A stretch of 8,265 bases of DNA from IMG/VR virus record IMGVR_UViG_2690316348_000005; one strand, 5' to 3'. Below the pieces are notes generated by a model. It saw only the letters and a list, made by a program, of their open reading frames with translations, did no database searches and was not told where the DNA came from. The stretch is from a virus. Its lineage: Duplodnaviria; Heunggongvirae; Uroviricota; Caudoviricetes. Position numbers and translations under genes: made by a program. Positions 1 through 8,265 of the stretch are shown one piece after another (position 1 is the first letter of the stretch; each line of letters starts with the position of its first letter).

Positions 1-73
1 AGGGAAAAATATCATCAGATGGCTGCTTAAAAAAAGAACAAATGGTAGTGTCCGCTATTGCCAGTACACCTCA
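1..73. repeat. Left arm of a 73-bp perfect terminal inverted repeat; reverse complement of 8193..8265
   Basis: Base-by-base comparison of 1..73 with the reverse complement of 8193..8265 gives 73/73 identity; the match ends at position 74 (t versus g). The arm contains the ATG of ORF 42..272. Confidence 0.9.
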
Positions 74-272
74 TCCATCACCGAAAAAAATTGGCTTTTA
101 CACCATTGGCGATAAAAGCATTTACCTGTATGACCTACGCCGCATGGATGAAATCATGGAGGCTCTTGATAATCGTTCGTCGATGGATTGGTGTGTTGCT
201 GTTCATGATATGAATGCAGGGTTTGATGAAAAGATTTTGTTCCCCTCATCAGTTGAAAGCACTGCGGGTTAA
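42..272 (+). CDS. Hypothetical protein, 76 aa; the reading frame is open back to the window start, so the gene may begin upstream
   Basis: ORF with ATG at 42 and TAA at 270..272. No Shine-Dalgarno sequence upstream of 42 and no in-frame stop between position 3 and 42. No family recognised. Confidence 0.3.
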   Translation: MVVSAIASTPHPSPKKIGFYTIGDKSIYLYDLRRMDEIMEALDNRSSMDWCVAVHDMNAGFDEKILFPSSVESTAG

Positions 273-282
273 GGAGTAACAC

Positions 283-450
283 ATGACCACTATTACCAAA
301 GAACGTATTGAATTGTTCATTAAAAACCCGCTTGAAAACGGGCTTACCCGTGGTGAACAAATGGAACTGGCACGGATTGCGCTGGCATCGCTGGAAGCAG
401 AGCCGGTTGTGTTCTGGTTTGAAAAATATCAAGAAGGGGCTACGGCATGA
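283..450 (+). CDS. Hypothetical small protein, 55 aa (not in the supplied ORF track because it is under 60 aa)
   Basis: ATG at 283 preceded by a consensus AAGGAG Shine-Dalgarno at optimal spacing. Stop TGA 448..450 overlaps the next ATG (ATGA). Shares an N-terminal MTTxT and an IAL(A/V)SL(E/A)AEP motif with the following ORF. Confidence 0.5.
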
Positions 451-791
451 CGACTTTTACCAGAGAGCAGTTAATAGCTCACGCAGAGGAGACTATTGAA
501 GCACAGAGACTGTGCATACCGGGCACAATCGACCATGACATCATCCGCACATATAAGATGGATATTGCTGTTCTGGAAATCGCACTGGTATCGCTGGCAG
601 CAGAGCCAGCCGGTAAATTGCATGAATACAAACCAGTGGGATATCAGCGTCTGGTCGATGAGTTAACCATGCTGGTAAAGCAGTTAACCTGGCAACTGAG
701 GAAAGCGAAGCCAGACTGCAAATTACCGGATAAGGCGATGAGTTATCTGGAGCGGAACGGACTGATAAGCGTGGAGGATATTTTACGATGA
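447..791 (+). CDS. Hypothetical protein, 114 aa; paralog-like to the 283..450 product
   Basis: ATG at 447 overlaps the upstream stop. Shared motifs with the preceding ORF. Position is typical of small nin-region genes in lambdoid phages. Confidence 0.5.
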
Positions 792-871
792 CCTGGCCTG
801 AAGCATTAACAACGGTAGGAATTGCGATGGCGGTGGCGCTGGTGGTGTATTCGATTTGCCGCTGGGGATAA
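788..871 (+). CDS. Possible 27-aa hydrophobic peptide ([27 protein letters not shown]), translationally coupled to the upstream gene
   Basis: ATG 788..790 overlaps the TGA 789..791 of the upstream ORF (ATGA). One predicted transmembrane-like hydrophobic stretch. Very short, so coding status is uncertain. Confidence 0.25.
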
Positions 872-1082
872 AAACGGTTTGCGGGAAAAGGAGAGTTAAG
901 TAGAATTGCAGCGGGTGCTTGAGGCTATCTGTCTCAGGCATGAACACCAAAAGGCAGATAGAGAAAAGCCCCAGTTAACATTACGCGTCCGGCAAGACGC
1001 TTAACATTAATCTGAGGCTCAATCTATGAACGGCAAATCTAGGTTAGCCTCTTACGTGCCGAAAGGCAAGGAGAAGCAGGCT

Positions 1083-1238
1083 ATGAAGCAGCAAAAGGCG
1101 ATGTTAATCGCCCTGATCGTCATCTGTTTAACCGTCATAGTGACGGCACTGGTAACGAGGAAAGACCTCTGCGAGGTACGAATTCGAACCGGCCAGACGG
1201 AGGTCGCTGTCTTCACAGCTTACGAACCTGAGGAGTAA
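1083..1238 (+). CDS. hokD: Hok/Gef-family type I toxin (HokD/RelF-like), 51 aa
   Basis: Translation MKQQKAMLIALIVICLTVIVTALVTRKDLCEVRIRTGQTEVAVFTAYEPEE matches my recollection of E. coli HokD. The ORF-track start at 1026 is an in-frame upstream extension. The gene is followed by a structured 3' region and a strong intrinsic terminator. Confidence 0.85.
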   Translation: MKQQKAMLIALIVICLTVIVTALVTRKDLCEVRIRTGQTEVAVFTAYEPEE

Positions 1239-1306
1239 GAGACCAGGCGGGGGAGAAATCCCTCGCCACCTCTGATGGGTCAGGCATCCTCAATGCACCC
1301 ACACTT

Positions 1307-1333
1307 AACCCGCTTCGGCGGGTTTTTGTTTTT
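1307..1333 (+). terminator. Rho-independent terminator downstream of hok
   Basis: Stem CCCGC (1309..1313), loop TTCG, stem GCGGG (1318..1322), followed by TTTTTGTTTTT. Confidence 0.75.
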
Positions 1334-1346
1334 ATTTTCAACGCGT

Positions 1347-1376
1347 TTGAAGTTTTAGATGGTGCCGGAATAGAAT
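1347..1376 (+). promoter_or_regulatory. Candidate sigma70 promoter upstream of the rem-like ORF
   Basis: -35 TTGAAG (1347..1352), 18-bp spacer, -10 TAGAAT (1371..1376). Sequence match only. Confidence 0.3.
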
Positions 1377-1458
1377 CAAAAATACTTAAGTAGCGCGCAG
1401 GGAGAAGAGGGATGGACCCCGAACAGGGGAGTGCTATTTATCTGGAAGGATTCTGTTG

Positions 1459-1740
1459 ATGAAAATCGAAGAATTACGTGAAATTTTTAGTGAAGATGGC
1501 CTCTATACTGTGCGCGTTGAGAATGGCGCTATTGTCAGCCACTGCCTTCCAGACTACACAATTCTGATAATTCAGCCGTCTTTGCCAGCAGGCACGGGCG
1601 GCGCTCTCACGCATTTAAATCTGATTGGTACCAGCATCCCCCATGCACTGAAGAACAGGCCGAATGGCTCATTCAGTGTTACCGCAGGCGCGGATGCGAG
1701 GTTAAAAAAGCCCTTAGCCTCGACTACCGTCACTGGATAA
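1459..1740 (+). CDS. Hypothetical protein, about 93 aa; Rem-like by position between hok and the DUF968 gene
   Basis: ORF with ATG at 1459 (the ORF track starts at TTG 1456) and an AAGGA-like ribosome-binding site upstream. The identity is from synteny with the Qin prophage order, not from sequence recognition. Confidence 0.4.
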   Translation: MKIEELREIFSEDGLYTVRVENGAIVSHCLPDYTILIIQPSLPAGTGGALTHLNLIGTSIPHALKNRPNGSFSVTAGADARLKKPLASTTVTG

Positions 1741-1815
1741 TCTCCGTCAGGCTCCCTTACTCCGAACGGCCAACGCGTCCGTCCCGCACATTCCAGCAAC
1801 GGATCTGGAGGTAAT

Positions 1816-2874
1816 GTGCGGGTATTACTTCGACCTGTTCTGGTACCGGAACTCGGTCTGGTTATCGTTAAGCCAGGCCGTGAATCAATGTCAGCATTCC
1901 ATAACGGCAGAATACTGGTGGAGCCGGAACCAAAAAGCATGCGTAATCTGCCGTCCGGGGTCGTTCCTGCCGCTCGCCAGCCGCTGGTGGAAGACAAAAC
2001 ATTGCTGCCGTTTTTCAGTAACGCACGGGTGATTCGTGCTGCTGGTGGTGCTGGTGCATTGTCTGACTGGCTGTTGCGCCATATTAAATCCTGCCAGTGG
2101 CCACACGGCGATTATCATCACAGCGAAACCGTCATTCACCGTTATGGTACCGGCGCAATGGTGTTGTGCTGGCACTGCGACAACCAGCTGCGTGACCAGA
2201 CATCCGAATCACTCGAGCAACTTGCTCATCAAAACCTGTCAGCATGGATGATTGACGTCATCGGTCACGCAATAAGCGGTACGCAGGAGCGTGAATTATC
2301 TCTGGCTGAATTATCCTGGTGGGCGGTCCGCAATCAGGTGGCGGACGCGCTACCGGAAGCGGTATTACGTCGTTCGCTGGGGTTGCGTGCGGAAAAAATT
2401 CGCTCTGTGTACAGTGAAAGCGACATCATACCGGGAGAGCAGACAGCCACCAGCATACTGAAGCAGCGCACAAAAAATATTGCGTTACTGCCTCACGTCC
2501 ACCAGCAACAGAACCCACCACAGGAAAAGACGGTGGTCAGCATTGCCGTTGATCCGGAGTCACCGGCTCAGTATCTCCAGCGCCAGAAATCACAACGGGA
2601 AGAGATGCCTGTATACACGCGCTGGGTAAAAACGCAGAAATGCATGACGTGTGGCAATCAGGCAGATGATCCGCATCACATCATTGGTCATGGACTGGGA
2701 GGGATGGGAACAAAGGCTGATGATTTGTTTGTTATTCCGTTATGCCGTAAATGCCGTAACGAACTACATGCCGGAGTAAAAGATTTTGAAGAGAAACACG
2801 GCAGTCAGCTGTTGTTGCTGATTCGTTTTTTAATGCACGCGAGAAATTCGGGTGTTCTGAAGTGGAAAGCATAA
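1816..2874 (+). CDS. DUF968/YdfU-like prophage protein with a C-terminal HNH-like Cys/His motif, 352 aa
   Basis: Long ORF with GTG start at 1816 and a GGAGG Shine-Dalgarno 4 nt upstream. C-terminal CMTCGNQADDPHHIIGHG...IPLCRKCRNELH resembles an HNH/zinc-finger motif. The stop is immediately followed by the rusA ATG. Start codon is uncertain; an internal ATG near 1888 is an alternative. Confidence 0.65.
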   Translation: MRVLLRPVLVPELGLVIVKPGRESMSAFHNGRILVEPEPKSMRNLPSGVVPAARQPLVEDKTLLPFFSNARVIRAAGGAGALSDWLLRHIKSCQWPHGDYHHSETVIHRYGTGAMVLCWHCDNQLRDQTSESLEQLAHQNLSAWMIDVIGHAISGTQERELSLAELSWWAVRNQVADALPEAVLRRSLGLRAEKIRSVYSESDIIPGEQTATSILKQRTKNIALLPHVHQQQNPPQEKTVVSIAVDPESPAQYLQRQKSQREEMPVYTRWVKTQKCMTCGNQADDPHHIIGHGLGGMGTKADDLFVIPLCRKCRNELHAGVKDFEEKHGSQLLLLIRFLMHARNSGVLKWKA

Positions 2875-3255
2875 ATGACCGAGCGCATAGAATTTGTTTT
2901 ACCTTACCCGCCGACGGTGAACACTTACTGGCGTCGTCGTGGCAGCACATATTTTGTATCAAAAGCCGGGGAGCGTTATCGCCGGGCAGTGGCGCTTATT
3001 GTTCGCCAGCAGCGGCTGAAATTAAGCCTGTCCGGAAGGTTGGCAATAAAAATTATTGCAGAACCACCGGATAAGCGCCGCCGTGACCTGGACAATATTC
3101 TGAAAGCGCCGCTGGATGCGCTGACGCATGCGGGGTTGCTAATGGACGATGAGCAGTTTGATGAAATCAATATCGTTCGTGCTCAGCCAGTATCTGGTGG
3201 ACGTCTGGGGGTGAAGATTTATCCCATAATGCTTGAAGGGCAGGTCAAAAAATGA
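2875..3255 (+). CDS. rusA: RusA-family Holliday junction resolvase, 126 aa
   Basis: Translation carries the RusA-like core ...PPDKRRRDLDNILKAPLDALTHAGLLMDDEQ... with conserved acidic residues, and the size matches RusA. Sits directly upstream of the Q-like gene, as in lambdoid nin regions. Confidence 0.88.
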   Translation: MTERIEFVLPYPPTVNTYWRRRGSTYFVSKAGERYRRAVALIVRQQRLKLSLSGRLAIKIIAEPPDKRRRDLDNILKAPLDALTHAGLLMDDEQFDEINIVRAQPVSGGRLGVKIYPIMLEGQVKK

Positions 3256-4073
3256 AACTGGAAGATTTACCGAAATACTACTCCCCAAAATCCCCCGGCC
3301 TGACTGATGCATCGGCCTCAACGTCGAAAGATGCGCTGAGTATCACTGATGTGATGGCCGCGCAGGGCATGACACAGAATCGGGCTGAGATGGGGGTTTC
3401 TGCGTTCCTTGGGAAAATGGGCATTAGTATGAATGACAGAGAGCGGGCAACAGAATTGCTGACAGAATATGCACTCAGTCGGTGTGATCGCGTGGCGGCG
3501 TTAAGAAAACTCCCGGCAGAAATAAAACCGGCAGTGATGCGTATTATGGCTTCGTATGCGTTTGAAGATTATGCCCGTAGCGCGGCGAGCAAAAAACAGT
3601 GCCCCTGCTGTCACGGAAAAAAATTTATTGAAAGCGAGGTTTTTACAAACAAGATCCAGTATCCGGATGGTAAGCCGCCGGTATGGGCAAAGTGTACGAA
3701 AGGTGTGTATCCGTCTTACTGGGAAGAATGGAAAAAAGTCAGGGAGGTGGTAAAAGTTGCCTGTCCGGAGTGTGGCGGAAAGGGTGAGGTTTCCACCGCC
3801 TGTAAGGATTGCCGTGGGCGTGGTGTCGCCATTCATCGTGAAGAGTCGGTAAAACGTGGTATGCCTGTTATCAGAGACTGCCAGCGTTGTGGTGGTCGTG
3901 GCTATGAAAGACTACCATCAACGGAGGCATTTAATGCTATATGCGAGGTGACAAACCAGATAACACGCGCGTCATGGGAAAAAACAGTTAAGAAATTTTA
4001 TGATGCGCTGGTGACCCGGTTTGATATTGAAGAAGCATGGGCTGAGCGGCAGTTAAAAAAGGTAACTAGGTAA
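3252..4073 (+). CDS. Putative late-gene antiterminator Q-like protein with four CxxCxGxG zinc-finger repeats, 273 aa
   Basis: ATG overlaps the rusA stop (ATGA). Contains CPCCHGKK, CPECGGKG, CKDCRGRG and CQRCGGRG repeats. Lies immediately upstream of a pR'-like promoter whose initial transcribed sequence is ACGATGGG. The Q assignment is by position and zinc motifs, not by a confirmed homology match. Confidence 0.6.
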   Translation: MKLEDLPKYYSPKSPGLTDASASTSKDALSITDVMAAQGMTQNRAEMGVSAFLGKMGISMNDRERATELLTEYALSRCDRVAALRKLPAEIKPAVMRIMASYAFEDYARSAASKKQCPCCHGKKFIESEVFTNKIQYPDGKPPVWAKCTKGVYPSYWEEWKKVREVVKVACPECGGKGEVSTACKDCRGRGVAIHREESVKRGMPVIRDCQRCGGRGYERLPSTEAFNAICEVTNQITRASWEKTVKKFYDALVTRFDIEEAWAERQLKKVTR

Positions 4074-4078
4074 CAAGG

Positions 4079-4114
4079 TTGATTTTTCCGGAATCTGTGG
4101 TAAATTCGTTATAA
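4079..4114 (+). promoter_or_regulatory. pR'-like late promoter with a likely qut region
   Basis: -35 TTGATT (4079..4084), 16-bp spacer, -10 TAAATT (4101..4106), then ACGATGGG. This closely resembles the lambda pR' -10 and initial transcribed sequence as I recall it. Confidence 0.6.
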
Positions 4115-4154
4115 CGATGGGCGTTTTATGCCTGACGTTAGAAGAGTTTCTACA

Positions 4155-4178
4155 ACCCGCCGCCGAGCGGGTTTTTTA
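4155..4178 (+). terminator. tR'-like intrinsic terminator, about 65 nt downstream of the putative late transcription start
   Basis: Stem CCCGC (4156..4160), loop CGCCGA, stem GCGGG (4167..4171), then TTTTTT (4172..4177). Confidence 0.65.
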
Positions 4179-4297
4179 TGACTGAAATCGCGTCAGTACA
4201 GTAAACGCGCTGGTGGCGGTGAATACCTGTCTTTCAGCTTGCTGGCTTTTTCGACAAGAGTTATTGGTGTGTCACGTTAACCGGAAAAGGAAAAGAC

Positions 4298-4495
4298 ATG
4301 CTAAAACAGCAGGATATGACAGAAACCGCCAGAGTGGTGTTTAATGAATTAAGCGTTACCGAACCGGCGACAGTCGGGGAGATAGCGCAGAATACTTACC
4401 TTTCACGCGAACGCTGCCAGTTAATACTGACCCAGCTGGTTATGGCGGGTCTGGCAGACTATCAGTTCGGTTGTTACAGACGCCTTCCGCAGTGA
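4298..4495 (+). CDS. Small putative winged-helix DNA-binding protein, 65 aa
   Basis: ATG at 4298 with an AAGGAAAAG ribosome-binding site upstream. The segment TVGEIAQNTYLSRERCQLILTQLVMAGL has a helix-turn-helix-like pattern. No specific family recognised. Confidence 0.45.
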   Translation: MLKQQDMTETARVVFNELSVTEPATVGEIAQNTYLSRERCQLILTQLVMAGLADYQFGCYRRLPQ

Positions 4496-4524
4496 AGGCT
4501 TTTTTATTTGTGGTAAATGGGCGG

Positions 4525-4551
4525 CTGGTGGGTGTTAGGGGCACCCACCAG
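4525..4551 (+). other. Perfect 10-bp stem hairpin (CTGGTGGGTG / CACCCACCAG, 7-nt loop) between the small wHTH gene and the methyltransferase
   Basis: Exact inverted repeat read from the sequence. Not followed by a T-run, so it is unlikely to be an intrinsic terminator. Confidence 0.4.
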
Positions 4552-4645
4552 CCATCTGCTCATGCGTTGGGTTCACAAGCAAACCTCAGGCCCACTGCTT
4601 TGCGCAAAAGCAGAATGAGCCTATCAGAGACAGGCTTAATGATCC

Positions 4646-5704
4646 ATGCTTAATACTGTAAAAATATCCAGTTGTGAGTTAATCAACGCCGACTGCCTGG
4701 AATTTATCCGGTCGTTACCCGAAAATTCTGTTGACCTGATAGTCACGGACCCGCCGTACTTTAAAGTGAAGCCTGAGGGCTGGGATAACCAGTGGAAGGG
4801 CGACGATGATTACCTGAAGTGGCTGGACCAGTGTCTGGCGCAGTTCTGGCGGGTGCTGAAACCTGCCGGAAGTCTTTACCTGTTCTGTGGTCATCGCCTG
4901 GCATCTGATATCGAAATCATGATGCGTGAACGCTTCAGTGTGCTGAACCATATTATCTGGGCGAAGCCGTCCGGACGCTGGAACGGATGCAACAAGGAAA
5001 GCCTGCGGGCGTATTTCCCCGCCACAGAGCGCATTCTGTTCGCGGAACATTATCAGGGGCCGTATCGTCCGAAAGATGCCGGGTATGCGGCGAAGGGCAG
5101 TGCACTGAAACAGCATGTGATGGCCCCGCTGATTTCTTACTTTCGTGATGCGCGAGCTGCCCTGGGGATAACGGCAAAACAGATTGCAGATGCCACAGGA
5201 AAGAAAAACATGGTGTCGCACTGGTTCAGTGCCGGTCAGTGGCAGTTGCCGAATGAAAGCGATTATCTGAAATTACAGGCGCTGTTTGCCCGGGTGGCAG
5301 AAGAGAAGCATCGGCGTGGTGAACTGGAAAAGCTCCACCACCAGCTGGTGGATACGTATACCTCACTGAACCGGCAGTATGCGGAGCTGCTGAGTGAATA
5401 TAAACATCTGCGGCGGTATTTTGGCGTGACGGTGCAGGTGCCGTATACCGATGTGTGGACGCATAAACCGGTGCAGTTCTATCCCGGGAAACATCCGTGC
5501 GAAAAACCGGCAGAAATGCTGCAGCAGATAATCAGCGCTAGCAGTCGTCCGGGTGACCTGATTGCAGATTTTTTCATGGGGTTGGGTTCGACAGTGAAAG
5601 CGGCACTGGCGCTCGGGCGTCGTGCAATTGGCGTTGAGCTGGAGACTGAACGTTTTGAGCAGACGGTTCGGGAAGTACAGGATTTAGTCAGCCAGAACGG
5701 ATGA
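4646..5704 (+). CDS. Orphan beta-class DNA methyltransferase (N6-adenine/N4-cytosine family, probably N6-adenine), 352 aa
   Basis: Catalytic motif IV DPPY (LIVTDPPYF) lies N-terminal to the SAM-binding motif I FxGxG (DLIADFFMGLGST), which is the beta-class order. No adjacent restriction endonuclease candidate is visible. Confidence 0.88.
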   Translation: MLNTVKISSCELINADCLEFIRSLPENSVDLIVTDPPYFKVKPEGWDNQWKGDDDYLKWLDQCLAQFWRVLKPAGSLYLFCGHRLASDIEIMMRERFSVLNHIIWAKPSGRWNGCNKESLRAYFPATERILFAEHYQGPYRPKDAGYAAKGSALKQHVMAPLISYFRDARAALGITAKQIADATGKKNMVSHWFSAGQWQLPNESDYLKLQALFARVAEEKHRRGELEKLHHQLVDTYTSLNRQYAELLSEYKHLRRYFGVTVQVPYTDVWTHKPVQFYPGKHPCEKPAEMLQQIISASSRPGDLIADFFMGLGSTVKAALALGRRAIGVELETERFEQTVREVQDLVSQNG

Positions 5705-5744
5705 TATTGAAGAATTAATTACGCGTCGTTATTATGCGGCTCCC

Positions 5745-5820
5745 GGCCCTTTAGCTCAGTGGTGAGAGCGAGCGACTCATAATCGCCAGGTCGCTGGTTC
5801 AAATCCAGCAAGGGCCACCA
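5745..5820 (+). tRNA. ileZ: tRNA-Ile2-like, anticodon CAT (presumed lysidine-modified, reads AUA)
   Basis: Manual cloverleaf: 7-bp acceptor GGCCCTT/AAGGGCC, D-arm with GG, anticodon loop CTCATAA, T-loop TTCAAAT, encoded CCA. Overall resemblance to E. coli ileX. The Ile-versus-Met call rests on that resemblance. Confidence 0.8.
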
Positions 5821-5827
5821 TCACATA

Positions 5828-5904
5828 CCGCCATTAGCTCATCAGGAAAGAGCGCCAGCCTTCGAAGCTGGCTGCGCGGGGTTCAAGTCCCCGATGGCGG
5901 TCCA
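5828..5904 (+). tRNA. argN: tRNA-Arg, anticodon TCG
   Basis: Manual cloverleaf: acceptor CCGCCAT/ATGGCGG (C1-G72), anticodon stem CCAGC/GCTGG, loop CTTCGAA, T-loop TTCAAGT, encoded CCA. The gene symbol is by position in a 933W-like ileZ-argN-argO cluster and is tentative. Confidence 0.75.
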
Positions 5905-5917
5905 TTATCTGCATCAT

Positions 5918-5994
5918 GCGTTGTTAGCTCAGCCGGACAGAGCAATTGCCTTCTAAGCAATCGGTCACTGGTTCGAATCCAGTACAGCGCGCCA
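5918..5994 (+). tRNA. argO: tRNA-Arg, anticodon TCT (reads AGA)
   Basis: Manual cloverleaf: acceptor GCGTTGT/ACAGCGC with a U4-G69 wobble, anticodon stem ATTGC/GCAAT, loop CTTCTAA, T-loop TTCGAAT, encoded CCA. The gene symbol is by position and is tentative. Confidence 0.8.
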
Positions 5995-6128
5995 TATTCA
6001 TTCTTCCAGATTCCTTCCGGCAGAGCCTTATACTGAAATATACCTGGCTCAGGATATTGTTGAAAATATTTTATGTTTGTCAAAAATAAAAGTTCTGTTA
6101 AGTATTGATTGAGTGTTTGTTATACGGT

Positions 6129-6458
6129 CTAATGGTTTTTTCAGCATTAAATATTTATCATTCATATGGTGTGGGTAGAGTGAATATTGATGAGGCGTCG
6201 GGGTGTTTCATCCTTAGGCAGCGTATTGATATAGTCAATGCAGCACGAGCAAAGGCCTTCAGCCGTTTGACAGTTTTGTTCTGTACTCCTGATCGTCTTT
6301 CGGGAAGAGACGTTATTATTCTGAATAGTGATGCTATACAGAGGGTTTGCGATGAGTTCATGGTTGCTAATTCAGAATTATTTGCTCTTGTTCAGGAGTA
6401 CAACAGAATAGCCAGGACCTGTGGTATGGATGAACTTCGGATTACTCATCTGGGGTAG
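6129..6458 (+). CDS. Hypothetical protein (about 109 aa from ATG 6129; 117 aa from TTG 6105) in the segment inserted after the first tRNA cluster
   Basis: ORF beginning in an AT-rich stretch with a candidate promoter TTGATT (6105..6110), 17-bp spacer, TCTAAT. No clear Shine-Dalgarno and no recognised family. Confidence 0.3.
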   Translation, partial: LMVFSALNIYHSYGVGRVNIDEASGCFILRQRIDIVNAARAKAFSRLTVLFCTPDRLSGRDVIILNSDAIQRVCDEFMVANSELFALVQEYNRIARTCGMDELRITHLG

Positions 6459-6650
6459 ATACATATCTGGATTATCACCTGTTACGGTAAAAAGTGATTG
6501 CTTACTGTTTTTGTGAATGGCATTGCAGCAGCCGGATAATGTCAGTGCTGGCTGACGGTGTGCTGGTGGCGGGTGTGGTGGTTGTTGCTTTCCCGTTGCT
6601 GAAAAAGAAAACGCCAGACTGTTAGCCGGGTATCAGTTAGCGGGAGAAAT

Positions 6651-6855
6651 TTTTAAATACTTCACAATTCAGGCGGTTGACTGTTGTCTGGTTTGCGGGG
6701 AGTTTGTTAAAAGAAACTGGCATGGTGAATCCCCCTGTGCGGAGGGGCAATCAGCGAGTAGGTATATGGGATAATCGCGGATTCAGGTGCTGGTACTGAA
6801 TTCACCGGGAGGCACCCGGCACCATGCAATGGCACATAGCGCCACTCTCCAGCCC
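6651..6855 (+). repeat. Direct repeat B, copy 1 (about 205 bp), GC-rich and structured; truncated just before the terminator that ends copy 2
   Basis: Matches 7215..7419, identical over the last ~165 bp with about 6 mismatches in the first ~40 bp. Contains hairpins such as CCCCCTGTGCGGAGGGG. Confidence 0.85.
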
Positions 6856-6928
6856 AAAGTACAGGATTTAGTCAGCCAGAACGGATGATATTGAAGAATT
6901 AATTACGCGTCGTTATTATGCGGCTCCC

Positions 6929-7004
6929 GGCCCTTTAGCTCAGTGGTGAGAGCGAGCGACTCATAATCGCCAGGTCGCTGGTTCAAATCCAGCAAGGGCC
7001 ACCA
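6929..7004 (+). tRNA. ileZ: tRNA-Ile2-like, anticodon CAT, second copy
   Basis: Identical to 5745..5820. Confidence 0.8.
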
Positions 7005-7011
7005 TCACATA

Positions 7012-7088
7012 CCGCCATTAGCTCATCAGGAAAGAGCGCCAGCCTTCGAAGCTGGCTGCGCGGGGTTCAAGTCCCCGATGGCGGTCCA
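7012..7088 (+). tRNA. argN: tRNA-Arg, anticodon TCG, second copy
   Basis: Identical to 5828..5904. Confidence 0.75.
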
Positions 7089-7101
7089 TTATCTGCATCA
7101 T

Positions 7102-7178
7102 GCGTTGTTAGCTCAGCCGGACAGAGCAATTGCCTTCTAAGCAATCGGTCACTGGTTCGAATCCAGTACAACGCGCCA
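7102..7178 (+). tRNA. argO: tRNA-Arg, anticodon TCT, second copy with a Watson-Crick U4-A69 pair
   Basis: Identical to 5918..5994 except G69 to A (position 7171), which converts the U4-G69 wobble into U-A. Confidence 0.8.
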
Positions 7179-7192
7179 CACTTATTTTCCCT

Positions 7193-7218
7193 GGCTCGCT
7201 TTTGCGGGCCTTTTTTTT
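7193..7218 (+). terminator. Intrinsic terminator immediately after the second tRNA cluster
   Basis: Stem GGCTCGC / GCGGGCC (one G-U pair), loop TTTT, followed by TTTTTTTT (7211..7218). There is no equivalent after the first tRNA cluster. Confidence 0.7.
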
Positions 7219-7419
7219 AAATGTCTCACAATTCAGACGGTTGACAGTTGTCTGTTTTGCGGGGAGTTTGTTAAAAGAAACTGGCATGGTGAATCCCCCT
7301 GTGCGGAGGGGCAATCAGCGAGTAGGTATATGGGATAATCGCGGATTCAGGTGCTGGTACTGAATTCACCGGGAGGCACCCGGCACCATGCAATGGCACA
7401 TAGCGCCACTCTCCAGCCC
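7215..7419 (+). repeat. Direct repeat B, copy 2 (about 205 bp)
   Basis: See copy 1. This copy begins with a perfect TTGACA (7242..7247) and is followed by a terminator. Confidence 0.85.
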
Positions 7420-7440
7420 CTCTCCGGAGGGGCTGTTTAT
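7415..7440 (+). terminator. Intrinsic terminator at the boundary between repeat B copy 2 and the AT-rich island
   Basis: Stem AGCCCCTC (7415..7422), loop TCCG, stem GAGGGGCT (7427..7434), followed by GTTTATATTGATTTT. Confidence 0.65.
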
Positions 7441-7469
7441 ATTGATTTTGTCAGATGTGAGTAAACTCC

Positions 7470-7805
7470 TTATGGACTTTGTTGTTTTAGTCCATAAGGA
7501 CATATTTGCAGAGTGCAACGGTTATTAAAGCATTCATTCAATACGTTATCTGTATTTGTAGGGCATTCCTGGCTATTTTTGATTGAATTCCAGAATGTTT
7601 TATTGAATGGTACTACGTTGTAAATGGTTACAGGTAGCACTTTGTTATTGAGCATGATGCCTGTGTGAGTCAGTGTAAATATACTTTCAGGAGGTAAGAA
7701 AGCATCCGATTGATACCAGATTATTAATTTTATTTTACTCCATATGACTGAAAAAGATATTCCGCATGATGGCTGGATAACTGTATCAATCACAATCCAC
7801 TTCAT
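7470..7805 (-). CDS. Hypothetical protein, 111 aa, in the AT-rich island; the only credible minus-strand gene in the window
   Basis: ATG (complement of 7803..7805) preceded on the minus strand by AAGGAAA with 6-nt spacing. Candidate promoter TTTACA-15-TATACT further upstream on the minus strand. The 3' end overlaps a 12-bp perfect hairpin (7467..7500). No family recognised. Confidence 0.4.
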
Positions 7806-8065
7806 TTAGTTTCCTTGTTTATGCCTTGCTGGTGATGTTCTGAAAAGTATAAATGATATTTTTGAATGTAAACCATAGAGCAGAATTATTTTTCTGATGT
7901 TGTTTATTGTTTATTTAAATGCAGGGTGGTTTATATCTCGTCTTGTAGTTTATCCATGCATATCTGCTTGATAATCAGGTTTTTATTTAAGGTATGGTTT
8001 TGTGTTTTTTCTGTATTACATGTCAGGTATTTTAAAGAATTATTTTTCAGATGGTGGAAAGAACC

Positions 8066-8239
8066 ATGGCATTTAAACACTATGATGTTGTCAGGGCGGC
8101 GCCGCCGTCAGATCTTGCGGAAAAGCTGACACATAAACTGAAAGAGGGCTGGCAGCCGTTTGGTAGTCCGGTGGCCATAACCCCTTATACCCTGAGGTGT
8201 ACTGGCAATAGCGGACACTACCATTTGTTCTTTTTTTAA
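8066..8239 (+). CDS. Small hypothetical protein, 57 aa (62 aa from the alternative ATG at 8051); possibly DUF1737-like
   Basis: ORF with a GGTGGA-like ribosome-binding site before ATG 8066. The EGWQPFG motif reminds me of small prophage proteins found upstream of lysis genes, but this is a weak recollection. The last 47 nt of the CDS lie inside the right terminal inverted repeat. Confidence 0.4.
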   Translation: MAFKHYDVVRAAPPSDLAEKLTHKLKEGWQPFGSPVAITPYTLRCTGNSGHYHLFFF

Positions 8240-8265
8240 GCAGCCATCTGATGATATTTTTCCCT
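8193..8265. repeat. Right arm of the 73-bp perfect terminal inverted repeat
   Basis: Reverse complement equals 1..73 exactly. Contains the C-terminal codons and 3' flank of the 8066..8239 ORF. Confidence 0.9.

Follow-up and report, generated by a model that had tools for sequence, protein, structure and literature searches.

The window, that is, the whole stretch of DNA analysed here (8,265 nucleotides), is on the evidence of its sequence matches a complete short-read contig of Shigella sonnei, consisting of a lambdoid prophage remnant between two inverted copies of IS600. Positions 1-73 and 8193-8265 form a perfect inverted repeat, with both ends matching the IS600 terminus (5'-TGAGGTG...) in inverted orientation, and 73 nt of each copy lie within the contig. 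The ideas that these 73-nt ends are a biological inverted repeat or reflect a polymorphism of IS600 were considered and rejected: IS600 copies are identical well past 73 nt, and the ends of the window are therefore contig ends. The left IS600/prophage junction is the one found in closed S. sonnei genomes (loci L023-L032) at the prophage site called locus 1 below. The methyltransferase is present in exact form in S. sonnei genomes, as are the 76-aa fusion ORF of the left end and the 62-aa one of the right end, the latter in 76 blocks of the collection. The genomes CP000038 (Ss046), HE616528 (53G) and CP019689 (75/02) are S. sonnei (PMC5447701). Within the window, Q (PF03589) and the methylase (PF01555) lie upstream of two clusters of tRNA genes; the features are collected in Table 1.

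Table 1. Features of the window, in order of position.
Feature	Position	Strand	Evidence
IS600 (IS3 family), terminal 73 nt, left contig end	1..73	+	100% identical to annotated IS600 ends
N6/N4 DNA methyltransferase gene, locus 1	4646..5704	+	Pfam PF01555, E 7.9e-42; exact protein at locus 1, including 53G
Promoter-like site TTGAAG-17-TATTAT before cluster 1	5707..5735	+	Consensus scan, pattern match only
tRNA cluster 1: ileZ-type (CAT) 5745-5820, argN-type Arg(TCG) 5828-5904, argO-type Arg(TCT) 5918-5994, with G69	5745..5994	+	ARAGORN, Rfam
First switch from locus 1 to locus 2, within argO, inside a 69-nt stretch common to both loci	5918..5986	+	Base-by-base comparison
Unit 1 cargo: orf117 6105-6458 (no family hit), DUF3927 gene 6494-6625	6105..6625	+	100% identical to locus 2
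STnc100 copy 1, locus 2 type	6691..6855	+	Rfam RF02076, 102 bits at 6691-6842
Novel junction J, ...CTCTCCAGCCC / A / AAGTACAGG..., no microhomology, one filler base	6855..6857	+	Alignment
31-mer spanning junction J, GCCACTCTCCAGCCCAAAGTACAGGATTTAG			
Last 32 nt of methyltransferase including stop codon, repeated, locus 1 type	6857..6888	+	Alignment
Promoter-like site, second copy, before cluster 2	6891..6919	+	Consensus scan, pattern match only
tRNA cluster 2: Ile-type (CAT) 6929-7004, Arg(TCG) 7012-7088, Arg(TCT) 7102-7178, with A69	6929..7178	+	ARAGORN, Rfam
Intrinsic terminator after cluster 2, GGCTCGC-TTTT-GCGGGCC then T8	7193..7218 (hairpin 7193-7210)	+	Scan; fold -13.8 kcal/mol, z = -3.7
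STnc100 copy 2, with terminator hairpin 7414-7435 and T-rich tail (predicted)	7255..7444	+	Rfam, 133.6 bits; alignment; fold
iraM (anti-adapter protein), locus 2 type	7470..7805	-	ORF; homologue annotated IraM, WP_000871291.1; 100% identical to locus 2
DUF1737 gene cut by IS600, 62-aa fusion ORF	8051..8239	+	Truncation identical at locus 2 of S. sonnei Ss046 and 75/02
IS600 terminal 73 nt, right contig end	8193..8265	-	100% identical to annotated IS600 ends

ARAGORN finds six tRNAs in the window, in two sets with the anticodons CAT, TCG and TCT; with scores of 58-72.5 bits, all of them exceed the Rfam gathering threshold for tRNA. This bears out a first-pass annotation of the sequence, which had proposed two copies of the trio with these cloverleaf models and anticodons. 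The pattern of CAT, TCG and TCT in that order within about 250 bp occurs twice in the window by ARAGORN, and is found also in a Stx2a phage (L170) and in a further phage (L171). The CAT tRNA is labelled Met by ARAGORN, and the identical gene is annotated as tRNA-Ile or ileZ in RefSeq and GenBank; as annotated, it is a predicted isoleucine tRNA, which would read AUA by virtue of lysidine modification. Homologues of the cluster 1 genes are annotated tRNA-Ile/Arg/Arg and ileZ/argN/argO. No match for ileZ, argN or argO by name was found in the literature collection searched.

The two clusters lie within longer direct repeats. Block A (5673-5994 and 6857-7178) is identical at 321 of 322 positions, its copies being 1,184 bp apart, and block B (6651-6855 and 7215-7419) at 199 of 205, with the 3' 164 nt exact and the copies 564 bp apart. 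The contig contains an exact internal repeat of 314 nt. Repeats as long as blocks A and B cannot be attributed to chance. Both blocks had been reported by the first-pass annotation and are found where it placed them. It had described block A as the 3' end of the methyltransferase plus three tRNAs; the tRNAs hold, while the repeated part of the methyltransferase amounts to only 32 nt, the original of which (5673-5704) is the start of block A. There is no sign that 5672/5673 is a homology boundary with respect to other methylase alleles or to locus 2. The lone difference within block A is 5987G versus 7171A, corresponding to position 69 of tRNA-Arg(TCT), which pairs with U4 to give U.G in one copy and U-A in the other; the folds of both versions have a full acceptor stem. 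The description of the units as mosaic and non-identical, with a terminator in the second, is likewise confirmed: between the blocks, unit 1 has about 650 bp with orf117 and DUF3927, whereas unit 2 has the intrinsic terminator only. Block B is the gene for the sRNA STnc100 (Rfam RF02076), its copies scoring 102 and 133.6 bits against a gathering threshold of 47 bits. Copy 1 is cut at 6855 within the 5' arm of its terminator hairpin, and hence has no terminator.

The origin of these units becomes clearer on comparison with two loci of S. sonnei. Locus 1 has the order IS600, hok, DUF968, rusA, Q, methyltransferase, three tRNAs, terminator and STnc100, with a second, diverged STnc100 further downstream in the same locus. 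Locus 2 has the order Q, two or three tRNAs, orf117, DUF3927, STnc100, iraM, truncated DUF1737 and IS600. Each of 42 related loci from about 40 genomes, including the closed S. sonnei genomes Ss046 and 53G, has one cluster only. By segment, the window matches locus 1 at 1-5986 (99.98% identity) and at 6857-7385 (100%), and locus 2 at 5918-6855 and at 7256-8265 (100% each); for the locus 2 segments, homologues in E. coli reach only 97.8-99.6% identity. From left to right, the contig thus runs from locus 1 to locus 2, back to locus 1 and again to locus 2. The stretches common to both loci are 87 nt in tRNA-Ile, 69 nt in argO and 130 nt in STnc100. The first switch falls in the second of these and the last in the third, such that STnc100 copy 2 has a 5' part of locus 1 type and a 3' part of locus 2 type, with the change lying within the identical stretch 7256-7385. 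The middle switch, from locus 2 to locus 1, is the junction at 6855/6857, called J here.

This composition bears directly on how the repeats arose. The first-pass annotation took them as a duplication of one locus, but the units are exact copies of two different S. sonnei loci: as judged by alignment, they are not duplicates of each other but pieces of two separate resident remnants. An in-place tandem duplication of one locus, followed by loss of the roughly 650-bp cargo from the second unit and by point divergence, would explain why the copies are direct and adjacent and why block A is near-identical. Adjacent direct copies are indeed present, but the two copies do not go back to a single progenitor locus. 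In unit 2, the terminator spacer and the 5' part of STnc100 match locus 1 at 100% and phage PhiR49_2 at 97.7% identity, and are not deletion derivatives of unit 1. The two loci already differ at the six block B positions and, with G/A, at argO position 69; G69/A69 separates module types as a standing polymorphism and is not a change that followed duplication. In-place duplication followed by deletion is rejected, as unit 2 matches locus 1 and the cargo of unit 1 matches locus 2, and we regard it as extremely improbable.

The alignments identify junction J as the sole truly novel sequence of the contig. Here the cut STnc100 terminator hairpin meets the repeated 32-nt end of the methyltransferase gene; the left side of the junction ends exactly at the base where locus 1 and locus 2 diverge, no k-mer is common to its two sides, and the breakpoint lies within a strong hairpin (-20.3 kcal/mol). 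The unique rearrangement junction is here, and not at the 3' end of tRNA-Arg(TCT), where it had been placed at first. The homology break at the 3' end of argO is an ordinary boundary, found across phages, between the tRNA module and alternative downstream cargo modules, these being stx2AB in Stx2a phages, orf117-DUF3927 in others, or nothing.

Junction J was looked for widely. When 5,426 complete E. coli genomes were queried by megablast with the 2.1-kb region and with a 136-nt junction probe, the top matches listed were two non-collinear pieces from single-copy loci. In 50,697 phage records, no record covers at least 80% of the tandem region used as query. Exact-pattern scans of GTDB representatives, IMG/VR and JGI metagenomes gave 0 matches with 39- and 24-nt probes, and with 19- and 17-nt probes nothing beyond chance matches, some 20 nt long and in unrelated organisms. 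The tandem arrangement was not found in the 42 related loci of about 40 genomes, several closed S. sonnei chromosomes among them. A 33-aa ORF across junction J and a 66-aa antisense ORF across the argO switch are neither of them on record, and ORFs so small may never be called. Among all the collections searched there is no independent support for the duplication junction.

The most likely origin of the hybrid, to which we give about an even chance, is a strain-private event of replication-based template switching or ectopic recombination between the two resident remnants. The standard phage trio normally lies between the Q/methyltransferase module and a cargo slot closed by STnc100. In the proposed event, two prophage remnants that are resident at separate sites in every sequenced S. 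sonnei would have recombined into a hybrid by means of two homologous switches, within the 69 nt of argO and the 130 nt of STnc100, and a third, illegitimate switch at the STnc100 terminator hairpin, where a hairpin at the breakpoint would be a plausible stalling site. An IS600-mediated rearrangement between these very two loci, which counts in favour of a real event, is seen in the closed genome CP045932, where the usual right flank of locus 2 adjoins the left IS600 of locus 1.

A considerable chance, somewhat short of even, is given to the contig being an assembly chimera, in which an isolate with two normal, separate loci has yielded a wrong path through their common repeats, and in which 6855/6857 comes from chimeric reads, from scaffolding or gap-filling, or from the merging of contigs. 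In favour of this, all segments copy locus 1 or locus 2 exactly and change over within identical stretches; the left side of junction J ends at the point where the loci diverge, with one filler base and without microhomology; the contig comes from short reads and ends in IS600; the 314-nt exact internal repeat demands repeat resolution by the assembler; and the arrangement is seen in no other assembly searched. However, since there is no common k-mer across junction J, a de Bruijn graph could not create it without reads containing it. The 73-nt IS ends suggest an assembler K of about 73, which exceeds the 69-nt argO stretch; that stretch would then not be collapsed, and the passage from locus 1 to locus 2 in argO would likewise have to be backed by reads. 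Both novel links would, moreover, have to survive low-coverage filtering. Once junction J is given, the tandem pair of clusters is forced by the local graph.

Several observations were counted against a real event. The arrangement is unique and three template switches are required; junction J looks like two assembly-graph node ends butted together; and with K = 73 the chimeric argO link would rest on four 74-mers only.

The function suggested at first for the repeat can also be considered, namely a selected tandem duplication that raises the dosage of tRNAs for AUA, AGA/AGG and CGA for the late or cargo genes of a 933W-like prophage. In general, tRNAs carried by phages are thought to compensate for differences in codon usage (PMC7946995, citing Bailly-Bechet 2007). 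The anticodons are as claimed, each cluster has its own promoter-like site, and the ORFs of the window are rich in AUA, AGA and AGG (17.1, 7.7 and 6.1 per 1000 codons). A role in late expression has no support: IS600 has truncated the remnant at both ends, and downstream the contig holds no late genes, only opposite-strand iraM and the truncated DUF1737. The arrangement is seen in this one contig only and has not spread, and its units stem from two different loci and not from one that was amplified, in a species that already has these tRNAs at two loci. Selection of this kind is very unlikely, and nothing suggests selection for the tandem arrangement.

None of the components is new, whether tRNAs, sRNA, cargo slot or IS600-bounded remnants, and what the contig presents is a one-off recombination in one strain or an assembly error, not a new biological device. 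If it is real, the strain would gain an extra ileZ-argN-argO set with its own promoter-like site, and transcription of the first STnc100 copy would read through into the second tRNA set. We suggest only tentatively, and with some doubt, that this is a real array in one S. sonnei lineage, produced by a single template-switching event, in which the terminator-less STnc100 reads into the second ileZ-argN-argO operon, which would alter in the host the dosage of rare-codon tRNAs as well as the formation of sRNA 3' ends. One more set of tRNAs carried by a dead prophage changes little and has little weight for biology; a real array would nonetheless be a neat natural case of ectopic template switching between prophage remnants. 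More generally, paralogous prophage modules of Shigella and E. coli have exact stretches of 70-300 nt in common, which can yield hybrid loci in the cell or in the assembler, and because of this, apparent tRNA duplications in draft contigs need a check against closed genomes and reads before any function is inferred.

Complex duplications with inserts from paralogous templates, switches of mixed type and hairpin breakpoints are a feature of FoSTeS/MMBIR and of homology-facilitated illegitimate recombination. The window is similar in its paralogous inserted material, its combination of homologous and non-homologous switches and its hairpin breakpoint, a likeness that may serve as a lead; it differs in that its illegitimate junction has no microhomology. 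Compared with S. sonnei itself, every segment of the window is 99.98-100% identical to locus 1 (53G, HE616528, and many closed genomes) or locus 2 (Ss046, CP000038, and 75/02, CP019689), including both IS600 junctions; in those genomes the two loci are separate with one cluster each, whereas in the window they are joined in the order locus 1, locus 2, locus 1, locus 2, with one junction found nowhere else.

[quoted passage not shown] In contrast, the two STnc100 copies of the window are only 564 bp apart, and copy 1 is without its terminator hairpin. STnc100 in the window adjoins the cargo/esterase region, which is its position also in Stx phages and S. sonnei. One published account gives the order Q, methylase, tRNA genes, stxAB (PMC3491183) and another the three tRNAs adjoining stx2a (PMC7946995), and the Stx2a phage AP012536 has methyltransferase, ileZ, argN, argO, stx2AB and then STnc100. 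Stx and lambdoid phages (AP012536, 933W-type; PhiR49_2; Nil3) have the same trio in the same order with the same anticodons, at 91-97% DNA identity, and likewise with Q and the DNA methylase upstream of it and the cargo slot downstream. They have one cluster, where the window has two, 1,184 bp apart, and the slot that holds stx2AB in Stx2a phages is occupied in the window by orf117 and DUF3927 in unit 1 and by a terminator only in unit 2.

ARAGORN predicts six tRNA genes in the window, arranged as two sets in identical order, and all six pass the Rfam tRNA threshold. The first-pass annotation, which had described two such clusters and two repeated blocks, was correct on both points: block A (5673-5994 and 6857-7178) is identical at 321 of 322 positions, the sole difference being 5987G/7171A, and block B (6651-6855 and 7215-7419) at 199 of 205, its 3'-most 164 nt being exact. 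Rfam identifies block B as STnc100 (RF02076), a prophage sRNA, at 102 bits (copy 1) and 133.6 bits (copy 2). A promoter-like TTGAAG-17-TATTAT is kept at each cluster (pattern match; 5707-5735 and 6891-6919).

Features of the two repeat units in the window
Feature	Position	Remark
CAT tRNA	5745-5820, 6929-7004	ARAGORN
Arg-TCG tRNA	5828-5904, 7012-7088	ARAGORN
Arg-TCT tRNA	5918-5994, 7102-7178	ARAGORN
orf117	6105-6458	unit 1, between blocks; no family match
DUF3927 gene	6494-6625	unit 1, between blocks
Intrinsic terminator	7193-7210 + T8	only element between blocks in unit 2

The single difference in block A is at position 69 of tRNA-Arg(TCT) (argO), facing U4 and giving U.G or U-A, and the acceptor stem is intact in the folds of both versions. 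The end of homology at the 3' end of argO had been taken as the duplication junction. It is instead a general module boundary seen across phages: the short-type continuation CACTTATTTTCCC is also present after argO in Stx2a phage, and the long-type continuation TATTCATTCTTCC in many E. coli prophages, with G and A at position 69 each found in both backgrounds.

In the retrieved genomes of Shigella sonnei, which include several closed chromosomes, there are two separate prophage remnants, here locus 1 and locus 2, and S. sonnei usually has five of these tRNAs across the two. Locus 1 runs IS600, a 76-aa ORF, hok, DUF968, rusA, Q (273 aa), methyltransferase, three tRNAs, terminator and STnc100, beyond which are about 190 bp and then either IS600 or directly a second, diverged STnc100 with a DUF1737/esterase gene. 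Locus 2 runs IS21, rusA, Q (284 aa), ileZ, a degenerate argN, argO, orf117, DUF3927 and STnc100, followed by iraM, a truncated DUF1737 and IS600. The window itself has a hok/sok module, DUF968, RusA, the Q antiterminator (273 aa), a small ORF, an N6/N4 DNA methyltransferase, the tRNAs, iraM (minus strand) and a truncated DUF1737 gene.

In a base-by-base comparison, 1-5986 matches locus 1 with a single mismatch in 5,986 nt, 5918-6855 matches locus 2, 6857-7385 locus 1 and 7256-8265 locus 2, the last three at 100%; identity of the locus-2 segments to their E. coli homologues reaches only 97.8-99.6%. Judged by these identities, the window is a hybrid of two resident S. sonnei loci. The exact methyltransferase protein, the 76-aa ORF fusing IS600 to the left end and the 62-aa DUF1737-IS600 fusion ORF of the right end are likewise all present in S. 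sonnei chromosomes (CP000038, HE616528 and CP019689 are strains Ss046, 53G and 75/02, respectively; PMC5447701). Two of the three switches are homologous, one inside argO (69 nt identical in both loci, 5918-5986) and one inside STnc100 (130 nt, 7256-7385). The third, at 6855/6857, reads ...CTCTCCAGCCC, then A, then AAGTACAGG..., and is the sole novel sequence in the window. The terminator hairpin of STnc100 (CAGCCCCTCTCCGGAGGGGCTG; folding energy -20.3 kcal/mol in copy 2) is broken within its 5' arm, exactly where locus 1 (AGCCC/TCTCC, the slash marking the cut) diverges from locus 2 (AGCCC/CTCTCC), and the sequence goes on, after one extra base and with no microhomology, into the final 32 nt of the methyltransferase gene. 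The junction also creates a 33-aa ORF (6787-6888), which runs from the STnc100 region in frame into the methyltransferase's final 11 codons (…LQPKVQDLVSQNG).

Positions 1-73 and 8193-8265 form a perfect inverted repeat, both being an IS600 terminus, and E. coli homology is confined to 74-8195. This 8.1-kb prophage fragment between inverted IS600 copies has the locus 1 junction on its left and that of locus 2 on its right. IS600 copies in closed genomes stay identical far past 73 nt, and the window ends are therefore contig ends, probably of a de Bruijn-type short-read assembly, with the 73-nt termini suggesting a K near 73.

The array arose either by recombination private to one strain or by misassembly. 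That it is an assembly chimera is a plausible though somewhat doubtful explanation: the arrangement is unique to the window, its path must switch three times between two paralogous loci, the breakpoint at the point of divergence with its filler base resembles two abutted graph nodes, the argO link would be carried by only four 74-mers at K = 73, and the assembler had to resolve a 314-nt exact internal repeat. However, no k-mer is common to the two sides of the junction, so that a de Bruijn assembler would need reads containing it; a K of about 73 would also keep the 69-nt stretch in argO from collapsing, and the link from the locus-1 argN to G5987 would then need reads too. Given the junction, block A (exact over 314 nt) and the 3' part of STnc100 (exact over 164 nt) would each be a 2-in/2-out repeat in the local graph, which should have tandem solutions only, the ambiguity being limited to the order of the two inserts. 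We regard it as an even bet that the array is a real, strain-private event. In its favour, S. sonnei rearranges between locus 1 and locus 2, as in CP045932. In that closed genome, a group of genes usually found on the right-hand side of the locus-2 IS600 (encoding a 203-aa ORF, Dam, resolvase, DUF72 and MAPEG) is instead found left of the locus-1 IS600 (L031 1-9000 vs L033 9394-16189, two retrieved loci), which indicates an inversion between the two IS600 copies. Among real events, the most economical would be a replicative template switch that ran from locus 1 to locus 2, back to locus 1 and again to locus 2, with stalling at the STnc100 terminator hairpin.

Against 5,426 complete E. coli genomes, the top matches listed for a 2.1-kb query collapse to single-copy loci of about 1.54 kb, and those listed for a junction probe align to it as two separated pieces. 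Among phage records, query coverage stayed below 80%, and exact-pattern searches of GTDB representatives, IMG/VR and JGI metagenomes did not find the junction elsewhere; what the 17-19-nt probes hit were chance matches of about 20 nt. Each of the 42 related loci retrieved (about 40 genomes) has a single cluster and lacks the junction, and no ORF specific to the chimeric links, the 33-aa ORF included, is on record as a called gene. The 62-aa ORF of the right end was likewise met on no contig 5-10 kb long.

Several other features deserve mention. The hok/sok type I toxin-antitoxin module (913-1238) comprises sok (913-1088; Rfam, 112 bits) and the Hok ORF (PF01848; 1026-1238). The Q antiterminator (3252-4073) is a long form of 273 aa that has two stretches matching PF03589 and, below the Pfam cut-off, a zinc-finger-like segment of the DnaJ type (CXXCXGXG); the DNA of its 284-aa relative in locus 2 is about 94% identical. 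Between Q and the methyltransferase is a conserved 65-aa ORF (4298-4495), annotated in E. coli as "hypothetical protein", with a weak TrmB-like helix-turn-helix match (E 0.0026, below cut-off). At 1546/1547 the window lacks 250 bp containing part of a Rem-family (PF27490) gene, which are present in 53G-type genomes (L005 652-901) and missing from many other S. sonnei genomes. Two same-orientation STnc100-family genes, about 80% alike, are native to locus 1 (L003 5426-5615 and 7159-7370; about 470 bp apart in 53G), the second just upstream of the DUF1737/SASA esterase gene, and in many strains an IS600 insertion separates them. Locus 2 and some E. coli prophages have a degenerate argN (Arg-TCG) gene (L022 4325-4424; L002 10240-10342) that neither ARAGORN nor Rfam detects, which leaves two tRNAs only.

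The window ORFs are rich in AUA, AGA and AGG (17.1, 7.7 and 6.1 per 1000 codons), which fits the usual rationale for phage tRNAs. The earlier proposal, that the duplication may raise rare-codon decoding in late expression, is nevertheless unsupported: the window is an IS600-truncated remnant with late genes absent downstream in the contig. A functional reading is further opposed by the lack of spread of the arrangement and by the tRNAs already in normal S. sonnei. The first-pass observation is confirmed, and its interpretation upheld in part. If real, the array would provide one extra tRNA set, into which the terminator-less STnc100 would read.

The components of the array are already known. 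Stx2a phage AP012536 is annotated with methylase, ileZ, argN, argO, stx2A and stx2B in that order and has STnc100 directly after stx2B, whereas phage PhiR49_2 has a truncated methylase gene, three tRNAs and STnc100 in succession, with cargo absent. These gene orders imply that a variable cargo slot lies between the tRNA trio and STnc100, a layout that agrees with the published order Q, methylase, tRNA genes, stxAB (PMC3491183) and with the three tRNAs that adjoin stx2a (PMC7946995).
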